The notes under the pieces: model-generated
What the model saw: the letters and a program-made list of their open reading frames with translations, nothing else
What the model was told of the DNA's origin: nothing
Database searches by the model: none
Program-made: the position numbers and the translations under genes
Origin: a plasmid
Sequence record: NZ_CP110904.1
DNA: 64,000 nt
Direction: 5' to 3' (one strand)
In this document: piece after piece, positions 12,647 through 52,430 of the stretch
How positions within the stretch are numbered: position 1 is the first letter of the stretch
Layout of the letters: every line of letters begins with the position of its first letter

Positions 12647-13469
12647 CTATCTGTAAAACAAGCGTAGTGCCATTTACCAAAAAACCTGAAATTCGCATCT
12701 TGAAATTGGGGAAGTTTATTCCTAATAAAACAATTTACTGACGATCCAACCAATTCGCTCCGCCGGGTATGTGCGCCTTAATCTCCAAAATTGGTATATA
12801 AACACCTTAAAGTTTATCCCGGGTGTTGAGTAACATTGCTTTGCATAATTTAGCCAAAGGGTTATAGGCTCAGATTCGGCGTGCTTTCTTAGTATTCTGA
12901 ATGCCATCTTTTGGATCACGAGGTAAGCAGGAAGGATTTAGTTCATTCCTGAATGGCGCCTTAGCCGTCGAAAATTTTGCGGGGGCCTGGCATATTCTAC
13001 TCTTTTGCCCGGTATTAGAGTCCAGGCTTTAAATTCCAACAAAGTTCTAGCACACCGAAACCTTATTTCGAAAACACTAGAAAAGGTAAAGGAAATTAAA
13101 TGTTAGTAACATAGAGATAATTAGAACGGCCTACGAGATTTCAGAAGAAGTAATCTGCACAAGTCTCCACAACTTTTGTGAGAACGCCCTCTTATTTTGC
13201 TGCGAAGAATTAACATTATTGTCTGGGTTCACGCCGAACCACACGGTACTCTTTCAGTCTGTGCGCTTCAGACCGGACGTCGTCTAACCAGCTTCCCATA
13301 AATATGTAGATTTATGTTTGCACCATAAGTCATTACCACTAACGTTAGAGAGGTCCAACCCGCGTTTCATATTTCAACTTTGTACTTTTCAGTTCTTACA
13401 ACCAAACTTTAATGTTGTTTTGCTTTTATCGTAGGTCATGTATAGATCCCTCCCGGGAACTGATTCATA

Positions 13470-14062
13470 TAACCCCTTAATCGCCAGCTCTAGGCGGGAT
13501 ACTGTCCGGGTGACGGAACACATTTAACCCCCTTAATCGCCAGCCCAGGGCGGGATGCTGTTCGGGTGCCTGTATATTTAACCCCCTTAATCGCCAGCTC
13601 AGGGCGGGATACTGTTCGGGTGCCTGAATATTTAACCCCCTTAATCGCCAGCTCAAGGCGGATACTGTCCAGGTGCCGGAACATTTAACCCCTTTAATCG
13701 CCAGCCCAGCGCGGGATACTGTCGGAGCGGCGGTACATTGAACCCTCTTAATCGCCAGCTCAAGGCCGAATTCTGTCCGGGTGCCGGAGCATTCAACCTC
13801 CTTAATCGCCAGCCCAGGGCGGGATGCTGTTTGGGTGCGGGAACATTTAACCCCCTTAATCGCCAGCCAAGGGAGGGACGCTGTCCGGGTGTCGGAACAT
13901 TTAACCCCCTTAATCGCCAGCCAAGGGAGGGACGCTGTCCGGGTGTCGGAACATTTAACCCCCTTAATCGCCAGCCCAGGGCGGGATGCTGTTTGAGTGC
14001 CGGAACATTTAACCCCGTTAATCGCCAGCCCAAAAAGAGATGCTTTTGAATACCGGGGAATT
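13470..14062. repeat. 11 tandem ~58-bp direct repeats; candidate type Ia centromere (parS-like)
   Basis: Unit is AACCCCCTTAATCGCCAGCYCAGGGCGGGATRCTGTYCGGGTGCCGGAACATTT. Each unit contains TCGCCA (identical to the P1 parS B-box hexamer) and ATTTAAC (one mismatch from the A-box ATTTCAC). The array lies ~270 bp upstream of parA. Confidence 0.6.
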
Positions 14063-38815: not shown

Positions 38816-38873
38816 TCCTGTTAAGGGGGAACCCTGACAGGGCTTCTCTTTGATTAAAATGAGGAGAGAAGAA

Positions 38874-39251
38874 ATGTCACATCTTGAATATGTTAATGAA
38901 GTTAAAGTGTCCGGGATAGTTATCAGTGCAATGGAGAAAGAAATGACTGACGGTAACGTTGGGTTATTAATAAAGCTCAAAAACAGAATGAAGACTGAAA
39001 TTAATGGTGAAATCGCTGAGAGAGAATTTTCTATTCAAATCAAAGTGTCACCAGAAATGTATTCAGGCTGTTTCACTGGTATAAATCAAGGTGATGAGTT
39101 AATGGTCTCCGGTTATCTTGTTGTGGATATTGTCACGTTGGAAGGGAGAGAGCACCCTCTTGACTACATGAGAGTCGTTGCAACAAGTAAGTTAGCTCAC
39201 ATACCTAAACCCCCCAAGGGTTTTGGGCAAAGTAGCTTTAGACAGATCTGA
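38874..39251 (+). CDS. SSB-like OB-fold protein (putative)
   Basis: The pattern NEVKVSGIV...GNVGLLIKL...GEIAEREFSIQIKV...QGDELMVSGYL resembles the SSB/PriB OB-fold signature. Listed ORF starts at 38850. Confidence 0.35.
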   Translation: MSHLEYVNEVKVSGIVISAMEKEMTDGNVGLLIKLKNRMKTEINGEIAEREFSIQIKVSPEMYSGCFTGINQGDELMVSGYLVVDIVTLEGREHPLDYMRVVATSKLAHIPKPPKGFGQSSFRQI

Positions 39252-39311
39252 CATTTAAACCACCCTAAAGGGGAGAAATCCCTTCATGGGAGATCTCCCT
39301 TTGGAGGCCCC

Positions 39312-40298
39312 ATGAAACAAAAAATTAGCTCGACATCATTTATTGGTAAACAAATGGATTTTTTCTCTATATTCGATTTTGAAGAAGAGGAAAATGAAAT
39401 AATACCCATAGTTGAGTCTCCGCTTGAATATATAAATAATGCAATAGCCCAAAAGCAAAGCATGCAATCAGAAGAAAAACATTCTGTCCCGGAACTGGTG
39501 CCTCATGTGTCGGATGATGTTGCATTGCTAGGTCATTGTTCCAAATTACTCAACAATCAAATTCTGCATGGAATTAGTTTTGCTTCTGAAACTGATTATC
39601 TCTTCACTTTAGAAGAATACAATGCAGAATTAGGTGGTCTGGTTATCGACTGGGCTCCTGAAGATGTATATCAGTTATACGTCGTCGCAATGGAAGAGTC
39701 GTTGGAAAACGTTAAATATCTTGTCTTTACAAAATCACTCTATACAACTGATGAATTCGGAAATATCAAAGTGAATCCGCTTCTTGAAGCAGAAACACGT
39801 TGGTATATGTCGCAGTCATTTGAGCTTACATGTGCCACTCATGGTATAGATGCTATTGAGTTTAGGTCAGAGCTTAAAAAAAGCTTGTATGAATACACGC
39901 ACAGTTTTGAAAGTGAAAATGTTAAATTATCTCAATATCATCAGGATAAAGAGATTATTTTGCATGATTGTAAAGAAGATATGGGATGGGATATCTTTTT
40001 CGACCGTGACTATTTATTGGCAGAAAATAAACTGGCAGTAAAATGGACTGATCGGGATATAATGGATGTCTATTCTAAAGCATTTAAATCAACAATTAAT
40101 TTGTTTGAAAAACTTGTCGTAAATAACAAGTTAACATTAAGGGATACATCAGGTTGGGTTATCGTAAACCCTACATTTGAGCGCCAGTTCGAATGGATTG
40201 AATCTGAAGTATTCGAAATTGTAGGGACTCATCTTGGTTACAACGTTGATGCTATCAGAAAACAGATGGTTACAGCGTGTAAGATGACCTTCAACTAA
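39312..40298 (+). CDS. Hypothetical acidic protein
   Basis: 328-aa ORF preceded by a dyad element. Confidence 0.45.
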   Translation: MKQKISSTSFIGKQMDFFSIFDFEEEENEIIPIVESPLEYINNAIAQKQSMQSEEKHSVPELVPHVSDDVALLGHCSKLLNNQILHGISFASETDYLFTLEEYNAELGGLVIDWAPEDVYQLYVVAMEESLENVKYLVFTKSLYTTDEFGNIKVNPLLEAETRWYMSQSFELTCATHGIDAIEFRSELKKSLYEYTHSFESENVKLSQYHQDKEIILHDCKEDMGWDIFFDRDYLLAENKLAVKWTDRDIMDVYSKAFKSTINLFEKLVVNNKLTLRDTSGWVIVNPTFERQFEWIESEVFEIVGTHLGYNVDAIRKQMVTACKMTFN

Positions 40299-40357
40299 TA
40301 TGCCACTGGCAAACATCTGCCAGCGGGCGGTGTTTGCATTTTACCGGAGTTTTAAAA

Positions 40358-41410
40358 ATGACTAACGCCGCAACTATATTAGAAACCGAAAATTCATTAC
40401 TGGAAGAAAATATTGGTAATCTGTTACCCGCAAATGTTATATCTACAAAAGCATATGCGAATAAGGAACAATATTACCTGGTTAAGGCCAAAGATTTGTT
40501 TGGTATTCCTGAAATGTCCGAGGATATGATAGTTCCAGTATTTAAACGTTTATCTCCACATCGTGCAAACCTGAATAAGGATTATATACCGAATGCTCGT
40601 ATACTTGAGCAAGTAGTACAATTGCTCGTAAGTAACGATATAGATTTAAGTGTATGCCTGAAAGGGGAGTCTGGTTCTGGTAAGACTGAAATGGCAATGT
40701 ACATTAGCCATATGCTGAATTGGCCGCTAACCATAAAGCAAATCAACAGTAATATTCGTGCTGATGAACTTGAAGGTGAGCGTAGTCTCATTAACGGAAA
40801 CACCAGTTTTGTGCCCAGCGAGCTTGTAACGGCGTTTCAGGAAGGCCACCTCATTCTTCTGGATGAAGTGGACAAGATTGACCCTGATACCGCCGCGAAG
40901 CTGCATATGCCTATAGAGCGTAAGCCCTGGTCACTAGCCGCCAACGGTGGCGAAGTGGTTAATGCCAATAAGTTTACGCGGTTTATGGGTACAGCAAACA
41001 CAAACATGAGTGGGGGATCTCGTAAGTTCGTTTCATCACAGCGGCAGGATGCAGCGTTTATTAAACGCTTCCTGATTGTGGAGATGGAAAGGCCTTCAGA
41101 GGTTGCATTAACCAACGTTTTGCTTAAACGCTACAATAGCCTGCCTATGCTGGTAATTGAAAAATTCGTTTCGGTAGCCGTTGCAGTAAACAACATAGGA
41201 ACTGAAGACAGTGTAATGGATATTCGTCAGCTTGTGGCATGGGTTGGAACGTCGATGACGTTAAAGACCATGTCCTTACTGGATACGTTTAAAATTGCTT
41301 TTGCGTCGGCTCTGCCTGCACATGCCAGTGGTATGGTGCTGGAAGCCATCGATTTAAAACTCGGTGACGATAAGAACCGTACAATGGAGTATTACACTGC
41401 AAAAAAGTAG
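40358..41410 (+). CDS. MoxR/CobS-like AAA+ ATPase
   Basis: Walker A GESGSGKTEMA, Walker B ILLDEVDKI. Size and motif spacing resemble phage/plasmid CobS-like proteins. GGAG RBS precedes 40358. Confidence 0.7.
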   Translation: MTNAATILETENSLLEENIGNLLPANVISTKAYANKEQYYLVKAKDLFGIPEMSEDMIVPVFKRLSPHRANLNKDYIPNARILEQVVQLLVSNDIDLSVCLKGESGSGKTEMAMYISHMLNWPLTIKQINSNIRADELEGERSLINGNTSFVPSELVTAFQEGHLILLDEVDKIDPDTAAKLHMPIERKPWSLAANGGEVVNANKFTRFMGTANTNMSGGSRKFVSSQRQDAAFIKRFLIVEMERPSEVALTNVLLKRYNSLPMLVIEKFVSVAVAVNNIGTEDSVMDIRQLVAWVGTSMTLKTMSLLDTFKIAFASALPAHASGMVLEAIDLKLGDDKNRTMEYYTAKK

Positions 41411-41448
41411 TTATAGATGGGACGAGTTATCAGAAGGCTGAATGCCTT

Positions 41449-41718
41449 GTGACAGACTTTGCTCATCTTTCGTTTTACGGTTTTTTGAGTGCAGACGGGG
41501 ATGAAACTTTCGCGATTGCACAGGAAGGAAATCAATATATAGGTCTTAAGCAGCACAATAATGATTTTTCATTTATTTGTTATCAAGATTGTGACAAAGA
41601 TATGGAAGCCATGATTAAGGGCCTTGAATCAAAAGGATTCATGTATCAAGGAAGTATTCAATCGACGTCTGTCGAGAGTGAATTTCCTGGAATTCTTTTA
41701 ACAACACTTGAGAAGTAA
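41449..41718 (+). CDS. Small hypothetical protein (89 aa)
   Basis: ORF only. Confidence 0.3.
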   Translation: MTDFAHLSFYGFLSADGDETFAIAQEGNQYIGLKQHNNDFSFICYQDCDKDMEAMIKGLESKGFMYQGSIQSTSVESEFPGILLTTLEK

Positions 41719-41789
41719 TAATCTTAACCCTATCGGGAAATCTTTCCCGACAGGGAGGTTTTCCCATTTTTTTAATCTGGAGAAAACCT

Positions 41790-42917
41790 ATGACTTTCAA
41801 TACTTCTAAACTTAATAAAGTTTCCGCTAAGCAAATCTGTGATAACTTTGTAAAAGCACATCCTGATTTGTTGGAAGGTGCTGTTATAACAAAAATCGAA
41901 ATCAGTGGTTGTCAGGGCTCTCGGCGTACCGATAAAATCGAACTGTCCTATGGCGGCGATGATATAACGGACCAGAAGAGCGTGTCTAAAAGTGAAGTTC
42001 GCTGGATAGACATAAAGGCACTGAGTTTCAAAAGCACTATCACTAGTCGAATTTCAACACTCTGTTCACGGTTGTGTATCCGCTATAGCAATATGTGGAT
42101 TTTGCCTGTCGAAAGAATGGAGGAGTTTCTGGAAGAGGCACAAGAAATTGAACGTGAGTTTCAAGCCGGTATCCAGAATGTGGTTGATAACTATGACACT
42201 CATATTCAGGCTGAGAAAGATCGCAGTCCGTTGATGTCAGATTTAATCGACCAGTTGAAATTAACGAAAGATGATTTTATTAAATCATTCCGGTTTAATC
42301 TGGCGCATTTCATTCCGTTTTCACCGATTAGTGTGGAGGGGGATGAAACACAGGACTTTTATCAGGAACAACTGATAATCGATTTGGCCGATGAAGCTAT
42401 GAAGGTTTATGCAAAAATCAGTAAAAATGATAATTTGCGTTCCAGCACGATTGACCGATTAAAACAGATGCAAGATAAAATCATTAGCTTTATGTTCATT
42501 CATAAAGAGGCGGTTGTTCTTGCAGAAGCTATCAAGCACGTCATGAATAATTTACCCAAAGGCGCCATTTCTTCTCCCCGTGATGTTGCGGTGTTAAAGC
42601 AATGGTTCTATTTCATGAGTGATGCGTCAATGCTGAAACGTATTATTTCTGGTGAGCAGAAAGTAACAGATTGGCTGGATTCCATTACCCGGTCATTCAA
42701 TATTGATTCACAGGATAATACGGCTAACTCTCAGAATGCTTTTGAGGATGATGTTTTTTCTTCAGCAAATGTGTTCAGAGAAGATCCGCTTGAAGAAGTT
42801 GAGAAAAACGCAGTAACTGCACCTTTGTCTGCTGTTGTCCCTGAAGAAGATGTTTCCCTTCAGGCCAGTGGTAGTAATAGTGCTTTTAACAGCGAACTCG
42901 AACTGAACGGCTGGTGA
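41790..42917 (+). CDS. Hypothetical protein (375 aa)
   Basis: ORF preceded by dyad element E4. Confidence 0.45.
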   Translation: MTFNTSKLNKVSAKQICDNFVKAHPDLLEGAVITKIEISGCQGSRRTDKIELSYGGDDITDQKSVSKSEVRWIDIKALSFKSTITSRISTLCSRLCIRYSNMWILPVERMEEFLEEAQEIEREFQAGIQNVVDNYDTHIQAEKDRSPLMSDLIDQLKLTKDDFIKSFRFNLAHFIPFSPISVEGDETQDFYQEQLIIDLADEAMKVYAKISKNDNLRSSTIDRLKQMQDKIISFMFIHKEAVVLAEAIKHVMNNLPKGAISSPRDVAVLKQWFYFMSDASMLKRIISGEQKVTDWLDSITRSFNIDSQDNTANSQNAFEDDVFSSANVFREDPLEEVEKNAVTAPLSAVVPEEDVSLQASGSNSAFNSELELNGW

Positions 42918-42994
42918 TTTAGTCTTGTAAAAATAACCCCAGATGGGTACTTCACCATCTGGGTGAGTACCCTTTATTAATTAAAGGTACTCAA

Positions 42995-45007
42995 ATGAAA
43001 TTTGATTTGAAATCTTCACCCCGCCATATTCAACGCCTGACGAATATAGCCAGCGTGATAAGCGGTATAAGTGGTCTTAATGTTGTAATAGACAATAAGG
43101 TACATACACCTTATTTCAACAGCGAAAAGAACGTTTGTGTATTACCTAATGGTGATTATAGCGATGAGAAATTCGTCAAGCTAATTGAAGGGTTTATATG
43201 TCATGAAGCTGGACACGGTCGCTATACAGAACATGAAGTATACCGTGAAGCTTTTGTTGGGGAACTGATTAATGCAGATGGCTTCATCAGTATAGATGAT
43301 AAGCTGAACGCTGAATTTCAAACCCTTAAACAAAAGAAAATCGCATATGCCCGGGCTTACCGTCTACATGGACTTATTAATCTCTTTGATGATGTCCAGA
43401 TGGAAGAGAAAACGGGTATTGACTATCAGGAGGCAAAAAAGCGCCTCGCGGTAAGTTATGCCTTGATGGTTGAAGCTGGGCGAATGACGGTTGATGTTTC
43501 TTCAAGCCCTCAAAACCCTGTTCAGTTTATTGAAATGTTCCTGCTTAATACATTGCGGGTTAACGTTCTCCAGCAAGAAGGGCATAAAGAAACGCTTGAT
43601 CCATTTTTCGATTATGCAAAGAAAATCCTTGAGCCTGTAATTTTAGAAGTTGATGAGATTATTCATCAGGCTCTAAGTTGCAAAAGTACGCAAAATTGCG
43701 ATTCTCTGGCGCGTAAAACCTTGGCTCTTTTAGAGCGTTTACGGGATGAAGCCAAAGAGAAACAGCAAGAAGAGGATCAGAATAAAGACCCGCAAAACGA
43801 CACAGACAATTCATCTGGCTCTGAGAATGAACCTGATTCCGAAACCAATGGTGACAACCAGGGTGAAGGGGATGGAGATTCCGAAGAGCAAGACGATGAT
43901 GCTGGTAATGGTAAAGCACCTATGGAAGATAATGAGCCGTCAGAGCAATCTAAAGGGGATGAAGAAAGTGCTGAGAGCGGTAACGGTGAACCTGATGGAG
44001 AGCCCGAAACCGATGAATCGGCTAACCCTGACTCGTATGATGCTGACGGAACTCCTTCCCAAATCGACAGTTCCAATGGAAATCCTTCCGATGGGGAAAG
44101 TAACTTTTCTCCTGAGCAGTGGAGTATCCTTGCCAAATTGCTGGATGATTTTCTTAACAGCGATGAGGAAAGTGAAGATTTTCATGAGGCTCTTGCAAAT
44201 GAAATCTCCGTAATTGCTGCCAGTGTGTCGGATGAGGTTAAAGCTGAATTTGGTGCAAATGAGTGGGATCTTCCAGATTTGCTTATTGATCTGAATGTCT
44301 ACAATGAAGCATTAAATATCAGTCAGACTCTTGGGGCAGACTTATCTGTTTTACAGCAGGTAAAAATGCGTGGTCAATTTAAAACCCGTGATAGAGGCTT
44401 GTCATTCGACATTAATCGATTGATCCAGTCTCCGATGGGTGTGAGGGATGTATTCCGGTCGCAAAGCGAATCTAAAAACCGGGGCCACGTCGGCTTGGTT
44501 ATTGTTCGTGATATTTCAGGTTCTATGATTCTGGATCACCGTTATATCCACGCAATTAAGACTGACCTTGCATTAACTTTGGCGATTGAAGCTAATTCAA
44601 AAATGCACGTTGCTAATGTGATTTATCCGTTTGTCGACAAAGACTTTGAATTTATCAAAACGTTTGATGAAAACGCGGAAGAGACGCTTTCAAAATTTTC
44701 ACTCGGCTGTAAAGGGAATAATACCCCAACGGGTTCCGCCTTAATGGCTGCTGTAGAATTGTTACTTGAAAGCCAGTTTGACAGGAAAATTGTTTTCCTT
44801 ATTACTGATGGTTATCCGACAGAGTCTGATTACACCATTAGTGATGTTCTTACGGTAGCTGAAAGTAACGGTATTGAAATCGCTGGTGTAGGCATTAAAA
44901 CTGATGAGTTAATTGGTTTTGATGAGGGCACCTTCGTAAATGTTGATGATATTTCTTTACTGCCGAATGTGGTCAGTAAATTAGTACATCAAATTCTATC
45001 TAATTAA
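42995..45007 (+). CDS. CobT-like protein with C-terminal von Willebrand factor A (vWA) domain and a long acidic D/E/S/N-rich linker
   Basis: MIDAS-like VIVRDISGSM and TDGYPTESD motifs. A ~120-aa acidic low-complexity segment. Forms a pair with the AAA+ gene at 40358. Confidence 0.7.
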   Translation: MKFDLKSSPRHIQRLTNIASVISGISGLNVVIDNKVHTPYFNSEKNVCVLPNGDYSDEKFVKLIEGFICHEAGHGRYTEHEVYREAFVGELINADGFISIDDKLNAEFQTLKQKKIAYARAYRLHGLINLFDDVQMEEKTGIDYQEAKKRLAVSYALMVEAGRMTVDVSSSPQNPVQFIEMFLLNTLRVNVLQQEGHKETLDPFFDYAKKILEPVILEVDEIIHQALSCKSTQNCDSLARKTLALLERLRDEAKEKQQEEDQNKDPQNDTDNSSGSENEPDSETNGDNQGEGDGDSEEQDDDAGNGKAPMEDNEPSEQSKGDEESAESGNGEPDGEPETDESANPDSYDADGTPSQIDSSNGNPSDGESNFSPEQWSILAKLLDDFLNSDEESEDFHEALANEISVIAASVSDEVKAEFGANEWDLPDLLIDLNVYNEALNISQTLGADLSVLQQVKMRGQFKTRDRGLSFDINRLIQSPMGVRDVFRSQSESKNRGHVGLVIVRDISGSMILDHRYIHAIKTDLALTLAIEANSKMHVANVIYPFVDKDFEFIKTFDENAEETLSKFSLGCKGNNTPTGSALMAAVELLLESQFDRKIVFLITDGYPTESDYTISDVLTVAESNGIEIAGVGIKTDELIGFDEGTFVNVDDISLLPNVVSKLVHQILSN

Positions 45008-45077
45008 CTCTACCCAATTGGGGCAAAATGACGCCCGGTTGGGTCGTTTTGCTCCCTGAAGGATTAAGGAGCAATAT

Positions 45078-45299
45078 ATGACTCAGATAAAGACTTACCG
45101 TGTCGAGTATGAAAAAGTCGGGATGATGCATCGTGTCCGTATTTTTGGTCGCATGGGTGAAGTTGTCAAAAGTGAATTGCCAAAAGAAGTAATTCTCCGG
45201 GATGTATCTATACCGGAGGGTAATGTAAAAATGGCAACATCAATGGTTGATGGTTTTATCCAGCGTCTTGAAAATAATGGCTTCAAGTCTGAAGCGTAA
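45078..45299 (+). CDS. Small basic protein (73 aa)
   Basis: ORF with RBS AAGGAG, followed by a strong hairpin. Confidence 0.35.
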   Translation: MTQIKTYRVEYEKVGMMHRVRIFGRMGEVVKSELPKEVILRDVSIPEGNVKMATSMVDGFIQRLENNGFKSEA

Positions 45300-45304
45300 T
45301 TGTT

Positions 45305-45393
45305 AAGGGCCATTATGGCCCTTATTCTTAGATTCTGCGTTGTGGGTTTCTCCCTGTTTTCTGCATCGCAGAGGGCATTGAGAAACCCACAAT
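45305..45393 (+). promoter_or_regulatory. Two consecutive strong stem-loops: 9-bp perfect hairpin AAGGGCCAT-T-ATGGCCCTT, then a 12-bp stem TGTGGGTTTCTC...GAGAAACCCACA enclosing an inner hairpin
   Basis: Direct reading. Lies between the 73-aa gene and the primase-like gene. Terminator, attenuator or ssDNA priming-site candidate. Confidence 0.6.
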
Positions 45394-45413
45394 GCCAGAT
45401 AAGAGAGAACAAA

Positions 45414-46646
45414 ATGACTTATGCATCACCGGCTGTTAAGCGTACACCACATGAAGTATCTGAGCACTTTATTAAAATGGTTCACGCTCGTGTTGCGGAA
45501 GCCTCTGGCTGGCGCTATGTATTCGATAGAATACCGGCATTTAAAGATGCTTGTGATAAAGCACCTAGCCAGGTTCCTTGCCCCTTCACCGGGGACGGGA
45601 AATCAAAGTTCCGTTTCCGAAAAAAAGACCTCTATACCGGTTGTGCTATTCACAATGATTTCCCTGTGAATGCATTTTGTGACGGTATTGATGTGCTGGC
45701 AGAGTATTACAAGTTGAGCAAAACCCAGACTTGTAAGAAGATCTTGACTGATTTCTTTGGTATGGATCTGTACGCTCCGTTAACTGATGCGGATCTCGAA
45801 AGTGAACGGCGTTATAAATCAACAGTTCGTGCAACCGAAACGCTTGATAGCGATGAAGTTGAAAAACGGCTGCGTAAACTTGAAGTGTTATATCACTATA
45901 CAGGTGAAATCAAGCCAGGGAGTCCTGTGGGCATGTATCTCCGAAATCGTGGTCTTAAACGAATTCTGAGTAATCTGCCTAAGGATCTTGGTCTGAACAA
46001 CCGACTTTACTATATGGATAAGTCACTAGAGAAACCGTCAACTTACCCGGGAATGATCGCAATTTATCGTGATACACGGGGACGTCCTCTGACAATCCAT
46101 AGAACGTTCGTAGAGAAAAATGGTGATAAGGCTCGGGTAGAGAATCCGAAACTGATGATGAAACCGCCTGCCGATATGACCGGCGGCTCAATTCAGCTGT
46201 ACGACCCACACTACAACTCAGGTACCCGTACCTGGACGTTAGGTGTGGCTGAAGGCATAGAAAACGCGCTGTCAGTAACTGAAGCGACTTCAACACCGTG
46301 TTGGGCTGCGAGCTCTGCCTGGTGTCTTGAAAACGTTGAAGTGCCGGATAGTCTACTGCCTCCTCCGGATGTGAAAGAAATACAGTTTTACGTCTGGGCG
46401 GATAAGGATGTTGTGAATTCAAGAGGCGCTTGCCCGGGTATGGAGTCAGCAATACGACTTCAGGCCCGAATGGAAGAGTTTTTTGCAAAGCGATATCCCA
46501 CTTCAGAGCTGACAATTAAAGTCTTTGAACCAGATTTCGATATTCCTGAAGGGACGAAAGGAATCGACTGGAACGAAGTATTGAAATTAACAGGACCTGA
46601 TGGCTTCCCAGTAAAATGGGCTCCTGAATGTCTTGCTCAGCTTTAA
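45414..46646 (+). CDS. Primase-like protein (N-terminal Zn-binding region plus Toprim domain)
   Basis: PCPFTGDGKSKFRF...CAIH zinc-binding pattern. Toprim-like LGVAEGIENALSV with acidic residues. Listed ORF starts at 45300 but that stretch is structured non-coding DNA. Confidence 0.5.
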   Translation: MTYASPAVKRTPHEVSEHFIKMVHARVAEASGWRYVFDRIPAFKDACDKAPSQVPCPFTGDGKSKFRFRKKDLYTGCAIHNDFPVNAFCDGIDVLAEYYKLSKTQTCKKILTDFFGMDLYAPLTDADLESERRYKSTVRATETLDSDEVEKRLRKLEVLYHYTGEIKPGSPVGMYLRNRGLKRILSNLPKDLGLNNRLYYMDKSLEKPSTYPGMIAIYRDTRGRPLTIHRTFVEKNGDKARVENPKLMMKPPADMTGGSIQLYDPHYNSGTRTWTLGVAEGIENALSVTEATSTPCWAASSAWCLENVEVPDSLLPPPDVKEIQFYVWADKDVVNSRGACPGMESAIRLQARMEEFFAKRYPTSELTIKVFEPDFDIPEGTKGIDWNEVLKLTGPDGFPVKWAPECLAQL

Positions 46647-46651
46647 ACCCG

Positions 46652-46690
46652 ATAACTCCCCCGCCTTTTTAGGTCGGGGGGGGTTATCTC
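46652..46690 (+). terminator. Hairpin terminator after the primase-like gene
   Basis: GATAACTCCCCCGcctttttaggtCGGGGGGGTTATC. Confidence 0.5.
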
Positions 46691-46919
46691 TTTAGTGTTT
46701 AATTTCATAAATACTAAACAGATAATTAGATTTCCTTCGTGAAAATCACCTGTTATTCAGGTTTTTTTTACGGCTGAGATGCTTGCTCAGTTAAATAAAT
46801 GTGCGGTACATCTGGCTACGGTCGGTTGTATGACGTGGTATATCCATATAACTCAAAACCCCTGACGGGAGTATTACCGTTAGGGTGATGCTCATCGTTT
46901 AATATAAGAGAGCATTGTT

Positions 46920-47444
46920 ATGAAAACTGAAAATCAAGACTTATTTAATAAGTTTGCTGCTGTGATTTCATCTCGTATCGTTGAGCAACCATCATCATGC
47001 TATTATCTTCATGATAGTGAAGTTGACCTTACGATTTTAAAACACAGCATAATAGATAAGGACAAAAACCTGTTGTATGTAATTCGCCCTTCAGGTACAT
47101 GTTTGTTACGCTGTGATAAATATTTTTTTCCGAATTACTATCTTACTTGTCGTGGAGATTATAAAGCATTCATTTATGTGCATTTTAATCTTGCTACAGG
47201 AAAAGCGGAAGATATCACGTGGCAACAAGCTTTAGAAGTTTTGTCCAAACCGGGAAGGCCCCCATTGAGAGGTTCTCTTGGAAGATTTGATTATTTAAAA
47301 CTTGTGGTTGATGATCTTCGTACCCGTGGTTATGCCGATTTTCTACCGGCATATAATCTGGATGGACTTCGTCATTTTGCAGTAAAGGATGAGCGACCAT
47401 CTCTTGTCAGTTATATCGACAATGTCATGGCTCTTTGCGCATAA
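46920..47444 (+). CDS. Hypothetical protein (174 aa)
   Basis: ORF preceded by dyad element E8. Confidence 0.45.
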   Translation: MKTENQDLFNKFAAVISSRIVEQPSSCYYLHDSEVDLTILKHSIIDKDKNLLYVIRPSGTCLLRCDKYFFPNYYLTCRGDYKAFIYVHFNLATGKAEDITWQQALEVLSKPGRPPLRGSLGRFDYLKLVVDDLRTRGYADFLPAYNLDGLRHFAVKDERPSLVSYIDNVMALCA

Positions 47445-47520
47445 ACATATCACATATTTTAACTACATCCCTGATGGCCAATCCCATCGGGGGGCCCTCA
47501 GCATTTAACCTGGAGGCCTT

Positions 47521-48399
47521 ATGAAATTAGCTACAGATCTTGTCAATGCAGTTCTGATAAAGGATGGTGTTGTACCGGTTTCCATTACTGAGATGCCTGT
47601 ACAGTCTCTTGTAAATCCTTTGACACAAGTGCATCTCAGCCTGTACCTGAAAACAACGCATTTATCGCGGTTCGTCCCTGACTATGTCGAGACTCTGAAA
47701 GATTGTCCGGTATCGTATGATATCGGCCTTGAACTTCAGCAGTGTATCAGCAGTGCTGAATTGCTCTGCGAAGACATGGAATCGCTTGAATTTATCTCTG
47801 TATGGATAGAACTCTATACGTGTAATTCAAAGCAACAACGGTTTGAGGAAAGTAACTTTTCTCTTCGTTCCGAAGATATCGAGCTGGCTAAGATGCTAGC
47901 TTGTTCCCATGATCTCTTGATTAGCCAGGCTGCTTGTTTCTGGCTTTTATATTTTGATGACTTCATGAGATATGTGCGTAATAGACTCTGTACTTTACTC
48001 AGAGAAGTTTTAATACTGATTGCCGGACTGCGGAATGCATTCTTGCACCGTAATGAAGATCAGTTAATTAAGAGAGTGAAGTACGGGAATGAAATGCTGG
48101 AGGTAACTCTTAAAGCTATTGCACTATGTTCAATGGACCGGTATCTGAAATCATTTACCTCTTTACGAACAGAAGCGGCAGCTTCGGGTTTTATCAAATG
48201 TGTTAAGTCTTATATCAGTACAGGGTGGAGACATGGTTATATAGTCTGTCACTATTATCGAAATGGACAGTCTCTTGGTAAGTCATTACCACTTTTTATA
48301 AGTGAGACGTCTGAATACAGTATACAGAAACGAGTAAATCGTCTTATATCTTCCACGATATCAGGGCGAAATAAAGATTTAGGTCTTTCTGATTTCTGA
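47521..48399 (+). CDS. Hypothetical protein (292 aa)
   Basis: ORF preceded by dyad element E9. Confidence 0.45.
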   Translation: MKLATDLVNAVLIKDGVVPVSITEMPVQSLVNPLTQVHLSLYLKTTHLSRFVPDYVETLKDCPVSYDIGLELQQCISSAELLCEDMESLEFISVWIELYTCNSKQQRFEESNFSLRSEDIELAKMLACSHDLLISQAACFWLLYFDDFMRYVRNRLCTLLREVLILIAGLRNAFLHRNEDQLIKRVKYGNEMLEVTLKAIALCSMDRYLKSFTSLRTEAAASGFIKCVKSYISTGWRHGYIVCHYYRNGQSLGKSLPLFISETSEYSIQKRVNRLISSTISGRNKDLGLSDF

Positions 48400-48466
48400 T
48401 TAACACTACCCATCTGGGGATTACTCCCCTGATGGGCGTAATCCCTTTTTATAACGAGAGGATTAC

Positions 48467-49402
48467 ATGAAAATTATCGAGAAAATCATTAATGCATTTC
48501 TGATGTCACGCAATCACGCTGTGAAGGTCAGCAATGTTATCTGCTTAACTGGTTGTGACGGTAAATTTACTGGTATACGTTGTGACGCCGATGTTTCATT
48601 TGATTTTCTTCATTCGTATGCTAACGCATACAGTTCAATATTTTTAGATATCCCGTTCCCTGGGTTCGAAGACCAGAACATTACGGATTGTGTTAAACGT
48701 CAGTTAGATGTAGTGAAAAATAAACAGAATCGGTCTTTCTTTATTGACCATATTAGATTCCCGGTTACTGTCAAGGAAGGATTCACTCTACAGCGCGGTG
48801 GTAGTTGCGACGTGACTGATAGTGAATATAACAAGCAACGATTGCTGCATTTAACTCGACATGGACGTTTTGGTGAAGACTATCTCACGTACAAAGAAGG
48901 ACTGAGTCCCTTCTTTTCATTTGTGAATGTAGAATTACATGAAACTATGAAGGAAGGTATTCGTTTAGCACTTGATGTTTTAAATAAGATAACAACTGAC
49001 CAACCTGACCGTCTTATAAAGGACTTTAAATATCATGACTGTTACAATAGTTATAATGTTCAAATATTTTGTAAGGGGTTGCCAGTTGATATTCTGGAAA
49101 CGATGATCGCACCTGACTTTTTGTCATCCGACATGTCTGGTAGTCGTCAGATCATCAAAAATGCACGCCGCTATCTTAAAGGCTTTGCCCACAGTAATCG
49201 TGTTTACATGAAGTACGGTTGGCGCTTAGCGGATATCGACACGTCTGATTATGCTAAAGTCATGTCAGATAAAGAAATGCATGCCAGAGATGATCTTAAA
49301 ATGTTTTGCGGTGTCTTTGTTAAAGAGTGCTTCGCATCCGGAAAAGATGAATACGAAGCCTACCTTCAAGAAAGACAACACGCTATTCGTTACGGGTATT
49401 AA
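48467..49402 (+). CDS. Hypothetical protein (311 aa)
   Basis: ORF preceded by dyad element E10. Confidence 0.45.
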   Translation: MKIIEKIINAFLMSRNHAVKVSNVICLTGCDGKFTGIRCDADVSFDFLHSYANAYSSIFLDIPFPGFEDQNITDCVKRQLDVVKNKQNRSFFIDHIRFPVTVKEGFTLQRGGSCDVTDSEYNKQRLLHLTRHGRFGEDYLTYKEGLSPFFSFVNVELHETMKEGIRLALDVLNKITTDQPDRLIKDFKYHDCYNSYNVQIFCKGLPVDILETMIAPDFLSSDMSGSRQIIKNARRYLKGFAHSNRVYMKYGWRLADIDTSDYAKVMSDKEMHARDDLKMFCGVFVKECFASGKDEYEAYLQERQHAIRYGY

Positions 49403-49479
49403 AACTTATTTTCAACTTATCTAATCCCTGAGGGAACTCTTCCCTTGGGGAGAATTCCCTCTTAACCGAGGGCAATAAA

Positions 49480-50213
49480 ATGAAAGCTATTTATAAATTA
49501 ATTGAAGCGATGCTGGTGAAGATGGGTTTTGAAGGTGCTGCGATCCAAAGTGTCAATCTGGAAACCGGAGTCATTCAGTGTCAGCAGCTCACCTGCGTCT
49601 TGTTGATGTTGAGCCAGACTGGCTGAATGAAGGTGTGAACCGTGAAAAACTGGACTATGTCTATTATCGTTCCAGCAATGCAGACAAGGATTTAATCCTT
49701 GGTATGGTTGAAAACGGTCACAATTTCATCAGCCATCTTCATGGCCAGTTACGGTCACGCTTATCTCAGGTTCTTCCGCTTATTTTCGCAGTTACAGAAA
49801 AGGTTGCGGAAAGTTCAGTTCCACAAGTGTTAACCAGGTTCTTCAGTGTTGACCATCAAATCAATACTCAGATAGTAGTTGAACCGGTACCCGTTTCAGT
49901 TGCAGACCAGATAATTTCTGCCAACTGGGATGTGAGTAGTATTTCTGGGGCTGACAAGTTCCTGAACCATGTTAATCGTTACCTGTCGGGTAGGGTGATG
50001 AAGCGGCGCATTTACGCTGTTATTGAATCTTGCAACGATGGCCCTTTAACTCTCGACGCGAATCTAGGTTGCTTTACTTCACCTCTTCTCGTCACTGAGT
50101 ACAAAATGGTTCAATCGCATTCTTCATCGCTGTACAGAAAGGCTATAAATAACTCGCTTAAGCAAATCAATTCGTATGCTCCAGAGCATTCGGATGATCT
50201 GCTTTACATGTAA
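49480..50213 (+). pseudogene. Hypothetical gene apparently split by a frameshift (48-aa ORF 49480-49626 plus 211-aa frame from 49533 ending at 50213)
   Basis: By analogy to neighbouring genes, dyad element E11 and an RBS mark the start at ATG 49480. The long frame has no ATG until ~49701 and only a GTG at 49578. Confidence 0.35.
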
Positions 50214-50286
50214 TTAATAAATAACCCTAAGGGAAGCTCAATCCCTTTAGGGGATGCTTCCTTTATTCTTTCAAGAGGAAGTAGAT

Positions 50287-51222
50287 ATGTTTAATGAAAA
50301 CGATGATATAAATTTTGTTAGCGCCATGCTTAAAAAACAACTTGGTCTGACAGTAATTCAACAGGATATTAAACTGTTTGATAAGTCTAATTTCTTTGAA
50401 CAACTCTCATTCAAAGCAGAAGTGGCGACTGATGATTTGTTATTCTATCTTGATTCATATATCGAAGAGTTGATAAAACATAAAGCGCCGTATTCTGAAA
50501 CCGAAGTTCTCCGGAATAAAATCAAATACCTTTTTAAAGTATATGAAAAGTCTGGGTTTCAGAAAATAACAATTCGTGGTTATCATAATGCGCATAGCAC
50601 TATGAAATTTTTCGATATAGCAACATCAATATTGGCGGCCTCAGAATCGTTGCCTGAATATGATGAATTTCAGAAAGGTCTCAGAAAGGAAATTTATCAG
50701 AATAGAATGAGTGTTGACGGGAAAGTTCTTATTGCCCGGTATGCACTGAAGCAATTTTTCCATTCTGATTTTGGCGACTTTATCTATGAGTTTGAGAAAA
50801 AAATAACAGAGTGTCTATTTAATTCTCTTCAGGTTATCAAGTCTGTTAAAAATTCATTTCATAGTTTAGGTCAATATCAATATCACCGTCGTGTAAATCA
50901 TGAACTGATGTTGCATCTTGAGCTGAACACTGATGAATACCCGGCTTGCATGCCTGATCTTTACATTGGTTTCAATGAGTCTGAAGGCACGACGGGGGCG
51001 TATTGCGATGATGAAAAACTCATTCGTCTTTATACCTGCGTAAGTTCCGGACACGATGTGCCGGTTATGATGAACGTTCGTTTCACTGGCAGTGATGGGA
51101 GTGTTAAGTGTGAATCCTCGCACGGAACCTTCTCTTCTGTGGGACCTTGTGGCCGAGTACAAATCTGTGACAGAGCAGCGTTGATCCATGAAGCGATTGA
51201 AGAGTTTCGGGACGGTGTTTAA
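50287..51222 (+). CDS. Hypothetical protein; paralog of the 51399-52355 product
   Basis: GKVLIARYALKQFFHSDF aligns with GQVLIARFALEQFWNTHF. Similar length, collinear similarity. Confidence 0.5.
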   Translation: MFNENDDINFVSAMLKKQLGLTVIQQDIKLFDKSNFFEQLSFKAEVATDDLLFYLDSYIEELIKHKAPYSETEVLRNKIKYLFKVYEKSGFQKITIRGYHNAHSTMKFFDIATSILAASESLPEYDEFQKGLRKEIYQNRMSVDGKVLIARYALKQFFHSDFGDFIYEFEKKITECLFNSLQVIKSVKNSFHSLGQYQYHRRVNHELMLHLELNTDEYPACMPDLYIGFNESEGTTGAYCDDEKLIRLYTCVSSGHDVPVMMNVRFTGSDGSVKCESSHGTFSSVGPCGRVQICDRAALIHEAIEEFRDGV

Positions 51223-51398
51223 CCGGTCCTCATTCTCACCTCATCGTAAAAAGTAACTTTGTTCGACTAAATGATTGCGTTCACTTTCCTGTTTAACTGG
51301 CAGGATAGAATGATTTAGAAAAACATATTTTTATCCACCCACTGGGGAAGTTGCTCCCCTATGGGGCACTTCCTTTCAATTTTCCTGAGGAAGTGAAA

Positions 51399-52355
51399 AT
51401 GACTAATTATACTGATAATCAAAACTACGTTCGTGCAGTACTGGCAGACATTGGCATTGATTTTGATGAGACAGAGATTCATATCAATGTCTCTCACTGC
51501 CAGGGCGACGAGGTTTCTTTTTCTTGCAGTATATCAGCCAGTGAATTAAGACAGTCTGTGGACCATTATGCGGAAACGCTTAATGCTACTCAACTGGATG
51601 GACTGGATGCTAATACCCTCAAGAAGCGCCTGGTTTACTTCCTTGAGGTCTTCGACCAAGTTTCCGGTCAGTATCTGGATATCTCTGGTAAACACTACGC
51701 GACTAGCCGCTTTGAATACGATGATGTCTGTTGTGATATCCTAAGTCTTTCTGCGGATAGCACACAACCTGGTGGCTATGATCGTGAAGAATACAAAAAA
51801 CTGATGGAAGTTGATGGACAGGTTTTAATCGCCCGTTTTGCACTGGAACAATTCTGGAATACGCATTTTATTGGGCTTATCAACTATGTATCAGATGAAA
51901 TAACATCCGGTCTTCATGATGCTTATCGCACTTTCAGTGATATAAGCATGGCCGCTTATACATTTAGTGAGTATTCATATTCACGTCGAATTACCGACGA
52001 ACTGAGTCTGCATATTTCACTTCAAGAGGACGATTTCGACGATCAATTAACCGATTGTTATATGGATGAAACAACGCTGCCGTCCGGCAAAGTAGTTTTA
52101 CGTCGTAATAATGAATCGATTATTGATATTTATGAAAGTTATGCTGCAAAATCTTACTTTCATATGGTTGCTCATGTTCGAGTCCTTGATCAAGATGGTG
52201 AAGTCGTTAATGAACTTTACCAAGGGGTGAATGTATCTGAATTGACTGGTGGCCGGGTTAAAATCCATGACCGTCAGGATCTAATTTATGAAGTATTCTC
52301 CACATTACGTAAACTCATCCCCGCTACAGAGGTTAAAGTCTCCGTTGCGGCATGA
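51399..52355 (+). CDS. Hypothetical protein; paralog of the 50287-51222 product
   Basis: See the paralog above. RBS GAGGAAG precedes the ATG at 51399. Confidence 0.5.
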   Translation: MTNYTDNQNYVRAVLADIGIDFDETEIHINVSHCQGDEVSFSCSISASELRQSVDHYAETLNATQLDGLDANTLKKRLVYFLEVFDQVSGQYLDISGKHYATSRFEYDDVCCDILSLSADSTQPGGYDREEYKKLMEVDGQVLIARFALEQFWNTHFIGLINYVSDEITSGLHDAYRTFSDISMAAYTFSEYSYSRRITDELSLHISLQEDDFDDQLTDCYMDETTLPSGKVVLRRNNESIIDIYESYAAKSYFHMVAHVRVLDQDGEVVNELYQGVNVSELTGGRVKIHDRQDLIYEVFSTLRKLIPATEVKVSVAA

Positions 52356-52357
52356 GT

Positions 52358-52430
52358 GCTGAAGATAGTTTTATATCTTCAGTTTTTTATACTCCCAAGA
52401 AGGCACGGTTATCCGTGCCTTTTTTTATTC
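52358..52430 (+). terminator. Tandem rho-independent terminators
   Basis: CTGAAGATAgttttaTATCTTCAG followed by TTTTTT, then AGGCACGGttatCCGTGCCT followed by TTTTTTT. Confidence 0.75.

Follow-up and report, generated by a model that had tools for sequence, protein, structure and literature searches.

In one gene block of an IncHI resistance plasmid, 12 intergenic junctions carry a two-hairpin element, and this element, as part of the plus-strand mRNA, probably acts in cis as a gate for translation initiation at the next cistron. One hairpin-pair design with a predicted built-in release before 12 genes looks like a shared, mostly undescribed layer of translational control.

Architecture of the elements

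Each element consists of two tandem hairpins, hp1 and then hp2, separated by 0-5 nt, and its three C-blocks and three G-blocks follow the order C1-G1-C2-G2-C3-G3. In hp1, some four weak pairs, with frequent mismatches among them, lie between the outer CCC:GGG clamp (C1:G2) and the inner GGG:CCC clamp (G1:C2). In hp2, an anti-SD stretch with C3 at its end pairs with the gene's own SD region (G3), and this pairing often reaches the start codon. The top of hp1 (G1 plus loop) nearly duplicates the SD region and is thus complementary to the anti-SD. The elements found in the window (the whole 64-kb stretch of plasmid DNA that was analysed) are the following:

38817-38876, plus strand: E1, before a 125-aa gene (ATG 38874); hp1 38817-38841 with a CCT..GG clamp variant, anti-SD arm 38843-38851, SD arm 38863-38871; tandem MFE -24.5 kcal/mol, z = -5.0; conserved in IncHI1, IncHI2 and Buttiauxella
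39263-39314, plus strand: E2, before a 328-aa gene (ATG 39312); hp1 39263-39290, anti-SD 39291-39299, SD GGAGG 39303-39307; z = -2.4; strict-motif and covariance-model match
40303-40360, plus strand: E3, degenerate variant before the AAA_5 ATPase gene (start 40358); hp1-like hairpin 40303-40326 (CCACTGGCA..TGCCAGCGG), GCAAACA complementary to TGTTTGC; z = -2.0; sequence identical in IncHI1 and near-identical in IncHI2
41728-41792, plus strand: E4, before the DUF3150 gene (ATG 41790); hp1 41728-41755, anti-SD arm 41756-41766, SD arm 41778-41789; MFE -29.4, z = -4.6; top covariance-model match (38.5 bits); orthologous elements in six lineages
42938-42997, plus strand: E5, before the VWA gene (ATG 42995); hp1 42938-42963, anti-SD arm 42964-42976, SD arm 42982-42993; MFE -30.5, z = -6.8; SD unpaired probability 0.01
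45013-45080, plus strand: E6, before a 73-aa gene (ATG 45078); hp1 45013-45043 with two U:G pairs, anti-SD arm 45049-45059, SD arm 45064-45074
46860-46922, plus strand: E7, before a 174-aa gene (ATG 46920), the first past a terminator-like hairpin (273-nt gap); hp1 46860-46885, anti-SD arm 46887-46896, SD arm 46908-46916; z = -5.1; plus strand -26.0 vs minus strand -18.6 kcal/mol
47469-47523, plus strand: E8, before a 292-aa gene (ATG 47521); hp1 47469-47492, anti-SD arm 47493-47501, SD arm 47510-47518; z = -2.8
48409-48469, plus strand: E9, before a 311-aa gene (ATG 48467); hp1 48409-48436, anti-SD arm 48438-48447, SD arm 48456-48466; z = -6.0
49426-49482, plus strand: E10, before the frameshifted gene at 49480; hp1 49426-49450, anti-SD arm 49454-49461, SD arm 49468-49476; z = -3.9; strict-motif match
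50225-50289, plus strand: E11, before a 311-aa gene (ATG 50287); hp1 50225-50252, anti-SD arm 50255-50264, SD arm 50274-50283; z = -2.7
51338-51401, plus strand: E12, before a 318-aa gene (ATG 51399; 176-nt gap); hp1 51338-51365, anti-SD arm 51367-51375, SD arm 51387-51395; z = -4.0; SD unpaired probability 0.01

The tandem two-hairpin fold is the MFE in 10 of these 12 elements (z-scores -2.0 to -6.8). When the element is free, this fold is favoured over the alternative one by 8.6 kcal/mol (about 7-9); in E6, the alternative fold lies just 3.7 kcal/mol above it. In genes with an element, the SD 6-mer had an unpaired probability of 0.24; for the comparison set, 36 further genes on the plus strand of the plasmid locus, the value was 0.43 (p = 0.0009). 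E3 leaves its SD free (6-mer unpaired probability 0.92), which speaks against the gate.

A preliminary description of this DNA had treated the CCC..GGG units as separate hairpins. They are the 5' and 3' arms of a single hp1 of 9-12 bp; in the alternative fold, the 3' arm on its own does make a CCC:GGG mini-hairpin. The complementarity behind its "second inverted repeat" is real, but connects the hp1 top, as a copy of the SD region, with the anti-SD. Its statement that the elements end just before the RBS was wrong, since the SD is the 3' arm of the second hairpin, and the spacing of 15-30 bp needs correction: hp1 ends at a constant distance of 29-35 nt upstream of the start codon.

Occurrence in the window

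The paired motif CCC-N3-5-GGG-N2-12-CCC-N3-5-GGG was found seven times in the window, every copy between 39263 and 51338, while 0.035 copies were expected (maximum of one in 200 simulations of the window with a first-order Markov model). Another 150 kb of this plasmid contained none. The single motif CCC-N3-5-GGG occurs 47 times in the window, and 27 of these copies lie within 38-52 kb. A covariance model of hp1, the construction of which had been proposed before, recovered nine of the 12 element sites at E<=1; it gave no match in the window outside the module and one marginal match in the 150 kb of loci L006-L008. Thus, the CCC/GGG dyad family described earlier is real, and all five dyads cited as examples lie where they had been placed. 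The earlier impression of an element before nearly every gene of the module (at least 11 regions) also held: 12 junctions carry one, and the junctions at 41449, 45414 and 49578, though inside the block, do not. As described earlier, the tra and par regions yielded none; the elements are limited to one gene block. The family had no match in Rfam.

Evidence for a plus-strand RNA

That the elements work as coding-strand RNA is supported by pair counts, by their strand-specific occurrence and by retention of pairs in orthologues. The hp2 stems contain 30 G:U pairs, as opposed to three mismatches of the A·C/C·A type. Folding of the plus strand is better by 2.3 kcal/mol than that of the minus strand (p = 0.009), and in the window the plus strand is the more stable one in nine of the 12 elements. 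A finder that required hp1, hp2, SD and ORF together returned 73 matches on the plus strand and two on the minus strand of nine loci. In the hp1 alignment, which was fitted to the covariance model and contains both strands, 88% of the cells were paired (75% in shuffles) and double changes were seen in eight of 10 pairs. Both clamps were invariant in sequence and orientation around a variable core; since CCC/GGG sequences served as seeds of the model, this invariance is in part circular. Among stem pairs changed in orthologues, 49-66% still pair, where chance is put at ~20%, a rough estimate rather than a computed control; mapping of the structure onto orthologues also gave many apparently broken pairs.

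Complementarity of apex and anti-SD

The hp1 apex is specifically complementary to the anti-SD of its own element. Cognate apex:anti-SD combinations reached -10.0 kcal/mol and non-cognate ones -5.6 kcal/mol, and in IncC the values were -13.6 and -9.6 kcal/mol (0 of 10000 permutations in either case). In E5, the SD region AGGTACTCA is copied by the apex GGGTACTTCA. In E9, the apex GGGGATTAC, the anti-SD GTAATCCC and the SD region AGGATTAC form a triplet that covaries three ways with its IncHI2 counterpart (GGGGATCAC / GTGATCCC / AGGATCAC); the changes in Buttiauxella are G:U-compatible.

Switching in thermodynamic models

In the thermodynamic models, the elements behaved as switches. When the first 3-6 nt of hp1 were masked, opening of the SD arm was predicted to rise from 0.11 to 0.32-0.43; with the whole 5' arm and loop masked, it remained at 0.12. 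For individual elements, the modelled opening increased from 0.02 to 0.71 (E5, 6 nt masked), from 0.03 to 0.75 (E7, 3 nt), from 0.08 to 0.72 (E11, 3 nt) and from 0.02 to 0.64 (E12, 3 nt). Masking raised the opening of cognate hp1/hp2 pairs from 0.12 to 0.44 and that of chimeras from 0.115 to 0.166 (p = 3e-8). With 5 nt masked, the advantage of the tandem fold fell to 1.2 kcal/mol. As a point against the proposal, the alternative fold became the ground state only when C1 was masked. The exception was E2, where the MFE is already the nested alternative fold, with the hp1 top paired to the anti-SD around the CCC:GGG mini-hairpin. A thermometer was also considered and is not supported; the tandem fold stayed closed throughout 20 to 45 C.

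Proposed mechanism and alternatives

In these models, the tandem fold is the ground state; it hides the SD, and translation of the gene would be low. The hp1 top would serve as an anti-anti-SD that the outer clamp keeps inactive. If C1, the first few nucleotides, were made unavailable, hp1 would collapse, its apex would pair with the anti-SD and the SD would be released. The 3' arm of hp1 would then form the CCC:GGG mini-hairpin inside the apex:anti-SD helix, which corresponds to the "nested dyad" of the preliminary description. Of the explanations offered there, translational control by a 5'-UTR RNA structure is the one that the data favour: the SD is sequestered, G:U pairs far outnumber A·C, the coding strand is preferred, pairing is kept in orthologues and the bet attenuator (see below) provides a precedent. 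We infer that the switch also works in vivo. Our best guess for the trigger, and the least certain part of the proposal, is a ribosome completing the upstream cistron, which would make translational coupling along the operon obligatory; C1 might instead be lost to an endonuclease, or a trans-acting factor might intervene. The distance from the stop codon to hp1 varies from 0 to 137 nt. In 32 of 65 elements it is <=12 nt, which speaks for the proposal; in the other 33 it is >12 nt, out of reach of a terminating ribosome, which argues against the ribosome as trigger. The same applies to the IncC vcrx087 element, which lies ~90 nt into a 5' UTR without upstream cistron, and a further 12 of the 77 examined elements had no long upstream ORF within 140 nt.

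A constitutive attenuator or stabiliser without switching appears rather unlikely. Here, hp2 would hold the translation of each cistron low or stoichiometric, and hp1 would be a 3'-protective hairpin of the upstream cistron, as in intercistronic selective RNA processing and stabilisation, or a folding insulator, with the apex:anti-SD complementarity as by-product. The 7-9 kcal/mol preference for a tandem fold that stays closed between 20 and 45 C is consistent with this reading, and so is the frequent start of hp1 near a stop codon. Moreover, the account in PMC4542580 of a strong attenuator before bet names no relief signal. However, such a device leaves unexplained why the unpaired hp1 loop matches its cognate anti-SD, why E9 covaries three ways and why C1 masking opens cognate and not chimeric elements.

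Somewhat more doubtful is a regulon whose gates would all open jointly when an RNA-binding protein, helicase or chaperone of plasmid or host origin recognises the CCC/GGG clamps in hp1, on the model of phage Mu Com, which acts at a hairpin beside the mom translation-inhibition stem. The invariant clamps around a variable core, the confinement to one block, the constant spacing from hp1 to the start and the elements in 5' UTRs without upstream cistron would suit it. On the other hand, Pfam, PADLOC and PDB sequence searches detected no RNA-binding domain in the module proteins, SD mimicry accounts in part for the G-blocks, and the clamp invariance carries the circularity mentioned above.

It is improbable that the gate is activated by processing, with endonucleolytic cleavage of the hp1 5' arm within its A/U-rich core or immediately upstream of it. 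Removal of C1 is thermodynamically equal to our masking, would leave a fragment with the stable apex:anti-SD hairpin at its beginning and with the SD accessible, and is compatible with any stop-to-hp1 distance and with 5' UTRs, but in the ground state this core takes part in base pairing.

Operators in dsDNA for a shared transcriptional regulator, as suggested earlier, are very improbable: inverted repeats with constant CCC/GGG ends do precede many genes, but the half-site cores vary among copies and covary as base pairs, G:T is tolerated ~ten times more often than A·C, the second dyad always includes the gene's own SD, full elements are strand-specific, and their positions are intercistronic within operons and not at promoters. 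Equally hard to credit are ssDNA promoters or priming signals after conjugative entry, also proposed before, and intrinsic terminators of upstream genes, which had already been discounted: the homologous IncC block does contain conjugative-entry genes (hde locus) and minus-strand hp1 is sometimes followed by T-rich sequence, but the 9-12 bp stems of these ~60-nt elements are too short to hold -35 and -10 boxes, promoter-like matches are not in excess (32 vs 39 expected), the block lies ~100 kb from the relaxase and mobilisation genes (mobI/mobH), plus-strand hp1 runs directly into hp2 without a T-run, and the SD coupling stays unexplained.

Comparison with known systems

Translational coupling by SD sequestration operates from MS2 coat to replicase, in IncI-alpha/IncB repY-repZ (leader peptide and pseudoknot) and in E. 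coli atpH-atpA. As in the gate proposed here, mRNA structure hides the SD of the downstream gene, remodelling by ribosomes in the upstream frame is proposed, and a third segment joins the active conformation. In contrast, the activator segment here would work by capturing the anti-SD, within a modular device of ~60 nt that is present in many copies per operon at no fixed distance from the stop codon. A pseudoknot with intact hp1 is sterically excluded because the linker measures only 0-5 nt. The adjacent-hairpin layout resembles that of phage Mu Com/mom, where the control point is the upstream hairpin, and the downstream one covers SD and start codon. However, no Com-like protein was identified here (Pfam, PADLOC), and hp1 has an intrinsic anti-anti-SD, which Mu does not need. 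Riboswitches, the tac/fbi elements of hok mRNA and the rpoS leader with DsrA follow the same three-segment logic of SD, anti-SD and anti-SD competitor, but here neither a ligand-binding aptamer nor an antisense RNA is evident and a simple 3-bp outer clamp locks the competitor. REP/BIME palindromes and Frpo-type ssDNA promoters share with our elements the repeated extragenic hairpins and the association with conjugative plasmids. REPs have conserved sequence, occur in both orientations and have no tie to the SD, and Frpo elements are ~300-nt hairpins with promoter boxes beside oriT; none of these defining features is found here.

Distribution and precedents

A search of other plasmids, which had likewise been proposed, found the same architecture in at least nine plasmid lineages, and the family includes IncHI1, IncHI2, Klebsiella IncHI1B, Buttiauxella, Shewanella, Cocleimonas, Pseudomonas and IncC plasmids. 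SXT/R391 and IncC have, after traN, a syntenic accessory block with AAA_5 ATPase, DUF3150 and VWA genes as in our plasmid. According to the summary in PMC4542580, Garriss et al. (2013) described a translational attenuator upstream of bet in SXT/R391 ICEs; for pVCR94, an IncC plasmid, Roy et al. (2020; PMC7498323) reported a structure before vcrx089 that is predicted to sequester the RBS. Both reports concern attenuation by RBS hiding, the function proposed here, but in single genes, whereas our elements precede nearly every cistron. Beyond these two cases, we did not find the multi-copy family and its switch described, nor the CCC/GGG-clamped hp1, the SD mimic at its apex and the occurrence in IncHI, Shewanella, Pseudomonas and other plasmids. 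The IncC elements before vcrx089, ssb, bet and exo consist of hp1 and hp2 as in the window, and the SXT bet attenuator therefore presumably has this architecture, too. In pVCR94, about 20 elements were found, as compared with 12 in the window.

Occurrence of the motif in the gene block

The CCC/GGG dyads are located in a plus-strand gene block directly 3' of the Tra2 genes trhF-W-U-N-I. This module is 100% identical to two Citrobacter freundii plasmids, CP078021.1 and pP10159-4 (NZ_MF072964.1), the latter of which is an IncHI-type plasmid with an IncHI1B replicon and a MOBH relaxase. Its features are as follows (window coordinates):

Block, first part, plus strand: 291-aa, 125-aa and 328-aa proteins, AAA_5 ATPase, 89-aa protein, DUF3150 protein
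Block, remainder, plus strand: VWA protein, 73-aa protein, toprim/DUF7146 protein, seven further unknown proteins
46647-46700: terminator-like hairpin 3' of the toprim gene
52358-52424: two strong terminators that close the block

The terminator-like hairpin and the closing terminators point to two or more transcription units, spanning about 37.9-46.7 kb and 46.9-52.4 kb. When we compared the synteny in the window, IncHI1, IncHI2, Klebsiella, Shewanella and IncC, we found a conserved order of trhN/traN, helicase or hypothetical genes and then AAA, DUF3150 and VWA; the IncC block adds ssb, bet and exo. The gene at 49480-50213 is frameshifted into 49480-49626 and 49578-50213, and its IncHI1 and IncHI2 orthologues are intact 306-aa open reading frames. 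E10, the element 5' of this gene, is itself intact.

The simple motif CCC-N3-5-GGG occurs 47 times in the window and 27 of these copies fall within 38-52 kb. For the paired form (CCC-N3-5-GGG-N2-12-CCC-N3-5-GGG), Markov simulations of the window predicted 0.035 copies, but seven were observed, every one at 39263-51338, and none was present in another 150 kb of the same plasmid. Elements were found at 12 of the 15 junctions of the block (E1-E12). A covariance model built on the first hairpin alone recovered nine of these twelve sites, gave no matches in the window outside the module and a single marginal match in the plasmid's other 150 kb. These data confirm the preliminary description in that CCC/GGG dyads recur 5' of genes, and they correct its anatomy. 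A small CCC..GGG peak at 12-14 kb is due to a repeat array near the parM region (13440-14050, spacing of about 80-110 bp, core TTAACCCCCTTAATCGCCAGCCCAGGGCGGGATRCTGT), which is probably partition- or iteron-like.

Anatomy of the elements

RNA folding of each intergenic region indicated that both CCC..GGG units are the two arms of a single hairpin (hp1). Its stem is closed at the base by a CCC:GGG clamp (outer clamp) and at the top by a GGG:CCC clamp (inner clamp), with some four weaker pairs between them, one of which is usually mismatched; the loop measures 3-11 nt. A second hairpin (hp2) starts 0-5 nt after hp1. An anti-Shine-Dalgarno sequence (anti-SD) makes up its 5' arm, and the 3' arm is formed by the SD region of the gene that follows, often as far as the start codon, which in canonical copies lies 29-35 nt from the end of hp1. 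Thus, the elements do not stop before the ribosome-binding site (RBS), as had been claimed, because the RBS forms part of the element. This tandem fold is the minimum-energy structure in 10 of the 12 window elements (z -2.0 to -6.8 against dinucleotide shuffles), and the SD is paired within hp2 in 11 of the 12. The copy at 40303, 5' of the ATPase gene, is a degenerate variant that leaves the SD exposed. The best SD 6-mer had an accessibility of 0.24 in element genes, against 0.43 for 36 further plus-strand genes from that plasmid locus (p = 0.0009). This parameter was used instead of a fixed window (-15..+3), which is a poor measure of accessibility (0.41 vs 0.50).

Evidence for an RNA structure

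Among the three options of the preliminary description (5'-UTR RNA structure, operators of a shared regulator, ssDNA-folding promoter or priming elements), translation control by 5'-UTR RNA is the one supported. We counted 30 G:U pairs vs three A·C/C·A mismatches in hp2 and nine vs four in hp1. Folding was better for the plus than for the minus strand, the plus strand being more stable in 9 of the 12 window elements. A finder that required hp1, hp2, an SD and an open reading frame returned 73 coding-strand vs two opposite-strand matches in nine loci. Since MAFFT alignment of whole elements gave no consensus structure and the hp1 set was shifted by one column, we seeded a covariance model with ten hp1 sequences of equal length. 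In the resulting hp1 alignment, which is model-fitted, CCC/GGG-seeded and includes both strands, 88% of the cells were paired vs 75% in shuffles. Both clamps were invariant. At each of the four core pairs, which covaried, 4-6 pair types occurred, and changes on both sides were seen in 8 of 10 pairs. Orthologues were mapped pairwise; a single alignment of the IncHI and Klebsiella copies was structurally inconsistent. Here, 49-66% of the changed stem pairs still pair, with chance at about 20% by our own estimate and not by a computed control.

The operator option is not supported: only the CCC/GGG ends are constant and the cores vary and covary, so that no half-site sequence is conserved across copies, as a dsDNA operator would demand. 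For a single-stranded promoter of the Frpo type or another leading-region element, the structures are too small (about 60 nt with stems of 9-12 bp) and lack promoter boxes, and no promoter-like excess was seen at the elements. Moreover, the relaxase region (mobI, mobH, traD) lies at 150-157 kb of the record (mobI/mobH at 150-155 kb), about 100 kb from the block at 38-52 kb, which places the elements far from oriT. The exclusion of intrinsic terminators was upheld, since hp1 is followed directly by hp2 without a T-run or U-tract and the real terminators of the block are those at 52358-52424. An RNA thermometer was rejected because the SD arm was predicted to stay largely paired at all temperatures (unpaired probability 0.07 at 20-30 °C, 0.10 at 45 °C), and CsrA-type GGA loops because the GGA is located in the stem and is absent from many Shewanella copies (by eye). 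An RNase III substrate was set aside, the stems being presumably too short and too interrupted.

The hp1 apex as a near copy of the SD region

The top of hp1 (inner GGG plus loop, called apex) closely matches the SD region in sequence, hence its complementarity to the anti-SD, seen for instance in E9 (48409):

E9, hp1 apex: GGGGATTAC
E9, anti-SD: GTAATCCC
E9, SD region: AGGATTAC

Comparison of this element between the window and IncHI2 revealed three-way covariation, and in Buttiauxella the apex of E9 carries a U where the SD has a C, the anti-SD G pairing with both. In a permutation test covering the window, Klebsiella and Shewanella elements, the cognate apex:anti-SD duplex had an energy of -10.0 kcal/mol vs -5.6 kcal/mol for permuted partners, and none of 10000 permutations was as good. 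The same holds for IncC (-13.6 vs -9.6; 0 of 10000).

This pairing is incompatible with an intact hp1, because the linker of 0-5 nt is too short to span the 9-12 bp stem. A pseudoknot of the H-type, with the hp1 loop paired to the anti-SD, is excluded by this geometry and, therefore, hp1 and the apex:anti-SD duplex are alternative pairings. When the alternative pairing was enforced, the 3' arm of hp1 formed a CCC:GGG mini-hairpin nested within it, and in some copies the 5' CCC paired weakly with the SD. The nested dyad of the preliminary description corresponds to this alternative fold, in which apex:anti-SD encloses the mini-hairpin; for E2 (39263) it is the minimum-energy structure.

Predicted switching and possible triggers

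With just the first 3-6 nt of hp1 masked in silico, the SD arm was predicted to be unpaired more often (probability 0.32-0.43 vs 0.11), and in several copies the value went from about 0.02 to about 0.7. When the whole 5' arm and loop of hp1 were masked, so that the apex was unavailable, opening stayed at 0.12. The response was strong for cognate hp1/hp2 combinations (0.12 to 0.44) and small for chimeras (0.115 to 0.166; p = 3e-8). When free, the tandem fold has an advantage of 8.6 kcal/mol in window elements and of 7.3 kcal/mol elsewhere, which falls to 1.2 and 0.4 kcal/mol, respectively, with five nucleotides masked. Because masking shrinks the advantage in this way, the outer clamp would be a lock of about 7-8 kcal/mol on a poised switch. 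The best-supported reading is that the elements would act as cis-acting translational gates, with a built-in anti-anti-SD that is locked by the 5' clamp.

An attractive candidate trigger is a ribosome that terminates on the preceding cistron, as in translational coupling devices, since stop codons adjoin hp1 in many copies. Among 65 stop-to-hp1 distances, 16 were at most 5 nt, 16 were 6-12 nt, 22 were 13-30 nt and 11 exceeded 30 nt. Thus, the stop lies within 12 nt in 32 of 65 copies, but farther away in the other 33, and some elements are situated in 5' UTRs. Small leader open reading frames ending at hp1 of long-gap copies were considered and rejected, since the one seen in the window, with 11 codons (ATGACGTGGTATATCCATATAACTCAAAACCCCTGA, 46828-46863) and its end within the 5' arm of E7, was not conserved in IncHI1/IncHI2 (by eye). 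Both of these plasmid types keep the start of this frame, but the stop has moved, to 3 nt ahead of hp1 in IncHI1 and to a site just past it in IncHI2; the frame may be a leader peptide or chance.

It is also possible that the clamp is removed by processing or opened by a trans-acting factor, for instance a small RNA-binding activator encoded nearby, as in protein-activated translation of the Mu Com/mom type. No RNA-binding domain was found in the ten module proteins searched (Pfam, PADLOC), though seven of these lacked any Pfam match, and a PDB sequence search of two of the ten gave no informative match. A purely constitutive attenuator without switching is a less likely possibility; it would leave the cognate apex:anti-SD complementarity unexplained. 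Another less likely reading is a plasmid-wide post-transcriptional regulon, in which polycistronic mRNAs of the accessory block that have already been made would be kept translationally silent and then all be released by a single signal attacking the invariant 5' CCC clamp. The attack could come from a trans-acting factor or from processing, and might be confined to conjugative entry or to transfer-competent cells. If true, IncHI, IncC/SXT and related AMR elements would share a novel type of global riboregulation, and the silenced block would include host-defence-evasion genes.

Distribution and relation to known attenuators

When other plasmids were searched, elements were found at orthologous junctions in several lineages. 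They are present in IncHI1 and IncHI2, in Klebsiella IncHI1B plasmids (DUF3150 with 40% amino-acid identity), in Buttiauxella, K. grimontii, Shewanella algicola, Shewanella aestuarii and a Cocleimonas MAG, and in a Pseudomonas aeruginosa plasmid and IncC plasmids. In pVCR94deltaX, 20 elements were accepted at 65-93 kb. Its tra regions gave only scattered finder matches without the hp1 clamp signature, which we take to be false positives. The same RBS-hiding fold also precedes vcrx089, ssb, bet and exo of IncC. Rfam gave no matches in the whole window at gathering thresholds and only chance-level ones in the module (E >= 0.49, well below gathering scores).

The IncC block is transcribed from AcaCD-dependent promoters (Table S3, PMC4207636). 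Transcription starting inside hp1, which would leave promoter-proximal copies constitutively open, was rejected because the start site mapped for vcrx087 in pVCR94 is some 90 nt 5' of hp1. Long-gap IncC copies carry a conserved box, TAGCTGG(T)C..CC-AAAACAAACAGCA, about 10-35 nt upstream of hp1, which for vcrx087 is within the mapped 5' UTR:

pAM04528 (IncC locus L020): box 5' of genes 14007, 18842, 22662 and 27076
pVCR94deltaX (IncC locus L022): box in the 5' UTRs of vcrx087, vcrx098 and vcrx114

IncHI plasmids and IncC/SXT elements are important vehicles of multidrug resistance. The elements resemble the attenuators of the AcaCD/SetCD-driven accessory operon of SXT/IncC, both in the RNA structure that sequesters the RBS and in the setting, a block 3' of traN with AAA_5 ATPase, DUF3150 and VWA genes. 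High transcription combined with poor translation is known for the bet and exo genes of the homologous block (PMC4542580); an experimentally strong drop in translation in spite of high transcription has been described for a single case, bet of SXT (PMC4542580). Hairpins go unmentioned in the two ChIP-exo/RNA-seq studies of AcaCD and SetCD, and we found no family-level description of the elements in the literature. Single members thus appear to be already known as attenuators, the repeated architecture and the switch appear not to have been described, and the family-level view is the first. A conserved, modular gate before almost every cistron would explain the bet/exo puzzle and extend this explanation to IncHI plasmids. 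Mutating single positions of the clamp, the apex of hp1 or the anti-SD would test it directly. The gate would also define an uncurated family of RNAs, some 100 members of which are already available, and offer a compact switch of natural design that could be put to use in synthetic operons.

The locus vcrx089-090-ssb-bet-exo serves host-defence evasion, and its hde genes allow the IncC plasmid to withstand restriction and cleavage by CRISPR-Cas in the course of conjugation (PMC7498323). Vcrx089 has been implicated in restriction evasion during conjugation (Roy et al. 2020, PMC7498323). The AAA_5 ATPase of the window (40358-41410) is a distant homologue of this protein (27% identity, tblastn) and, because of this homology, the IncHI block may have a related role.

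A different conserved structure (45307-45396) precedes the toprim/DUF7146 gene (start at 45414). It consists of a small hairpin (GGGCCATTATGGCCC) followed by a near-perfect hairpin of about 60 nt (GCGTTGTGGGTTTCTC...GAGAAACCCACAATGC), and it is kept in IncHI1, IncHI2 and Klebsiella, with a comparable long hairpin at the same junction in Shewanella.
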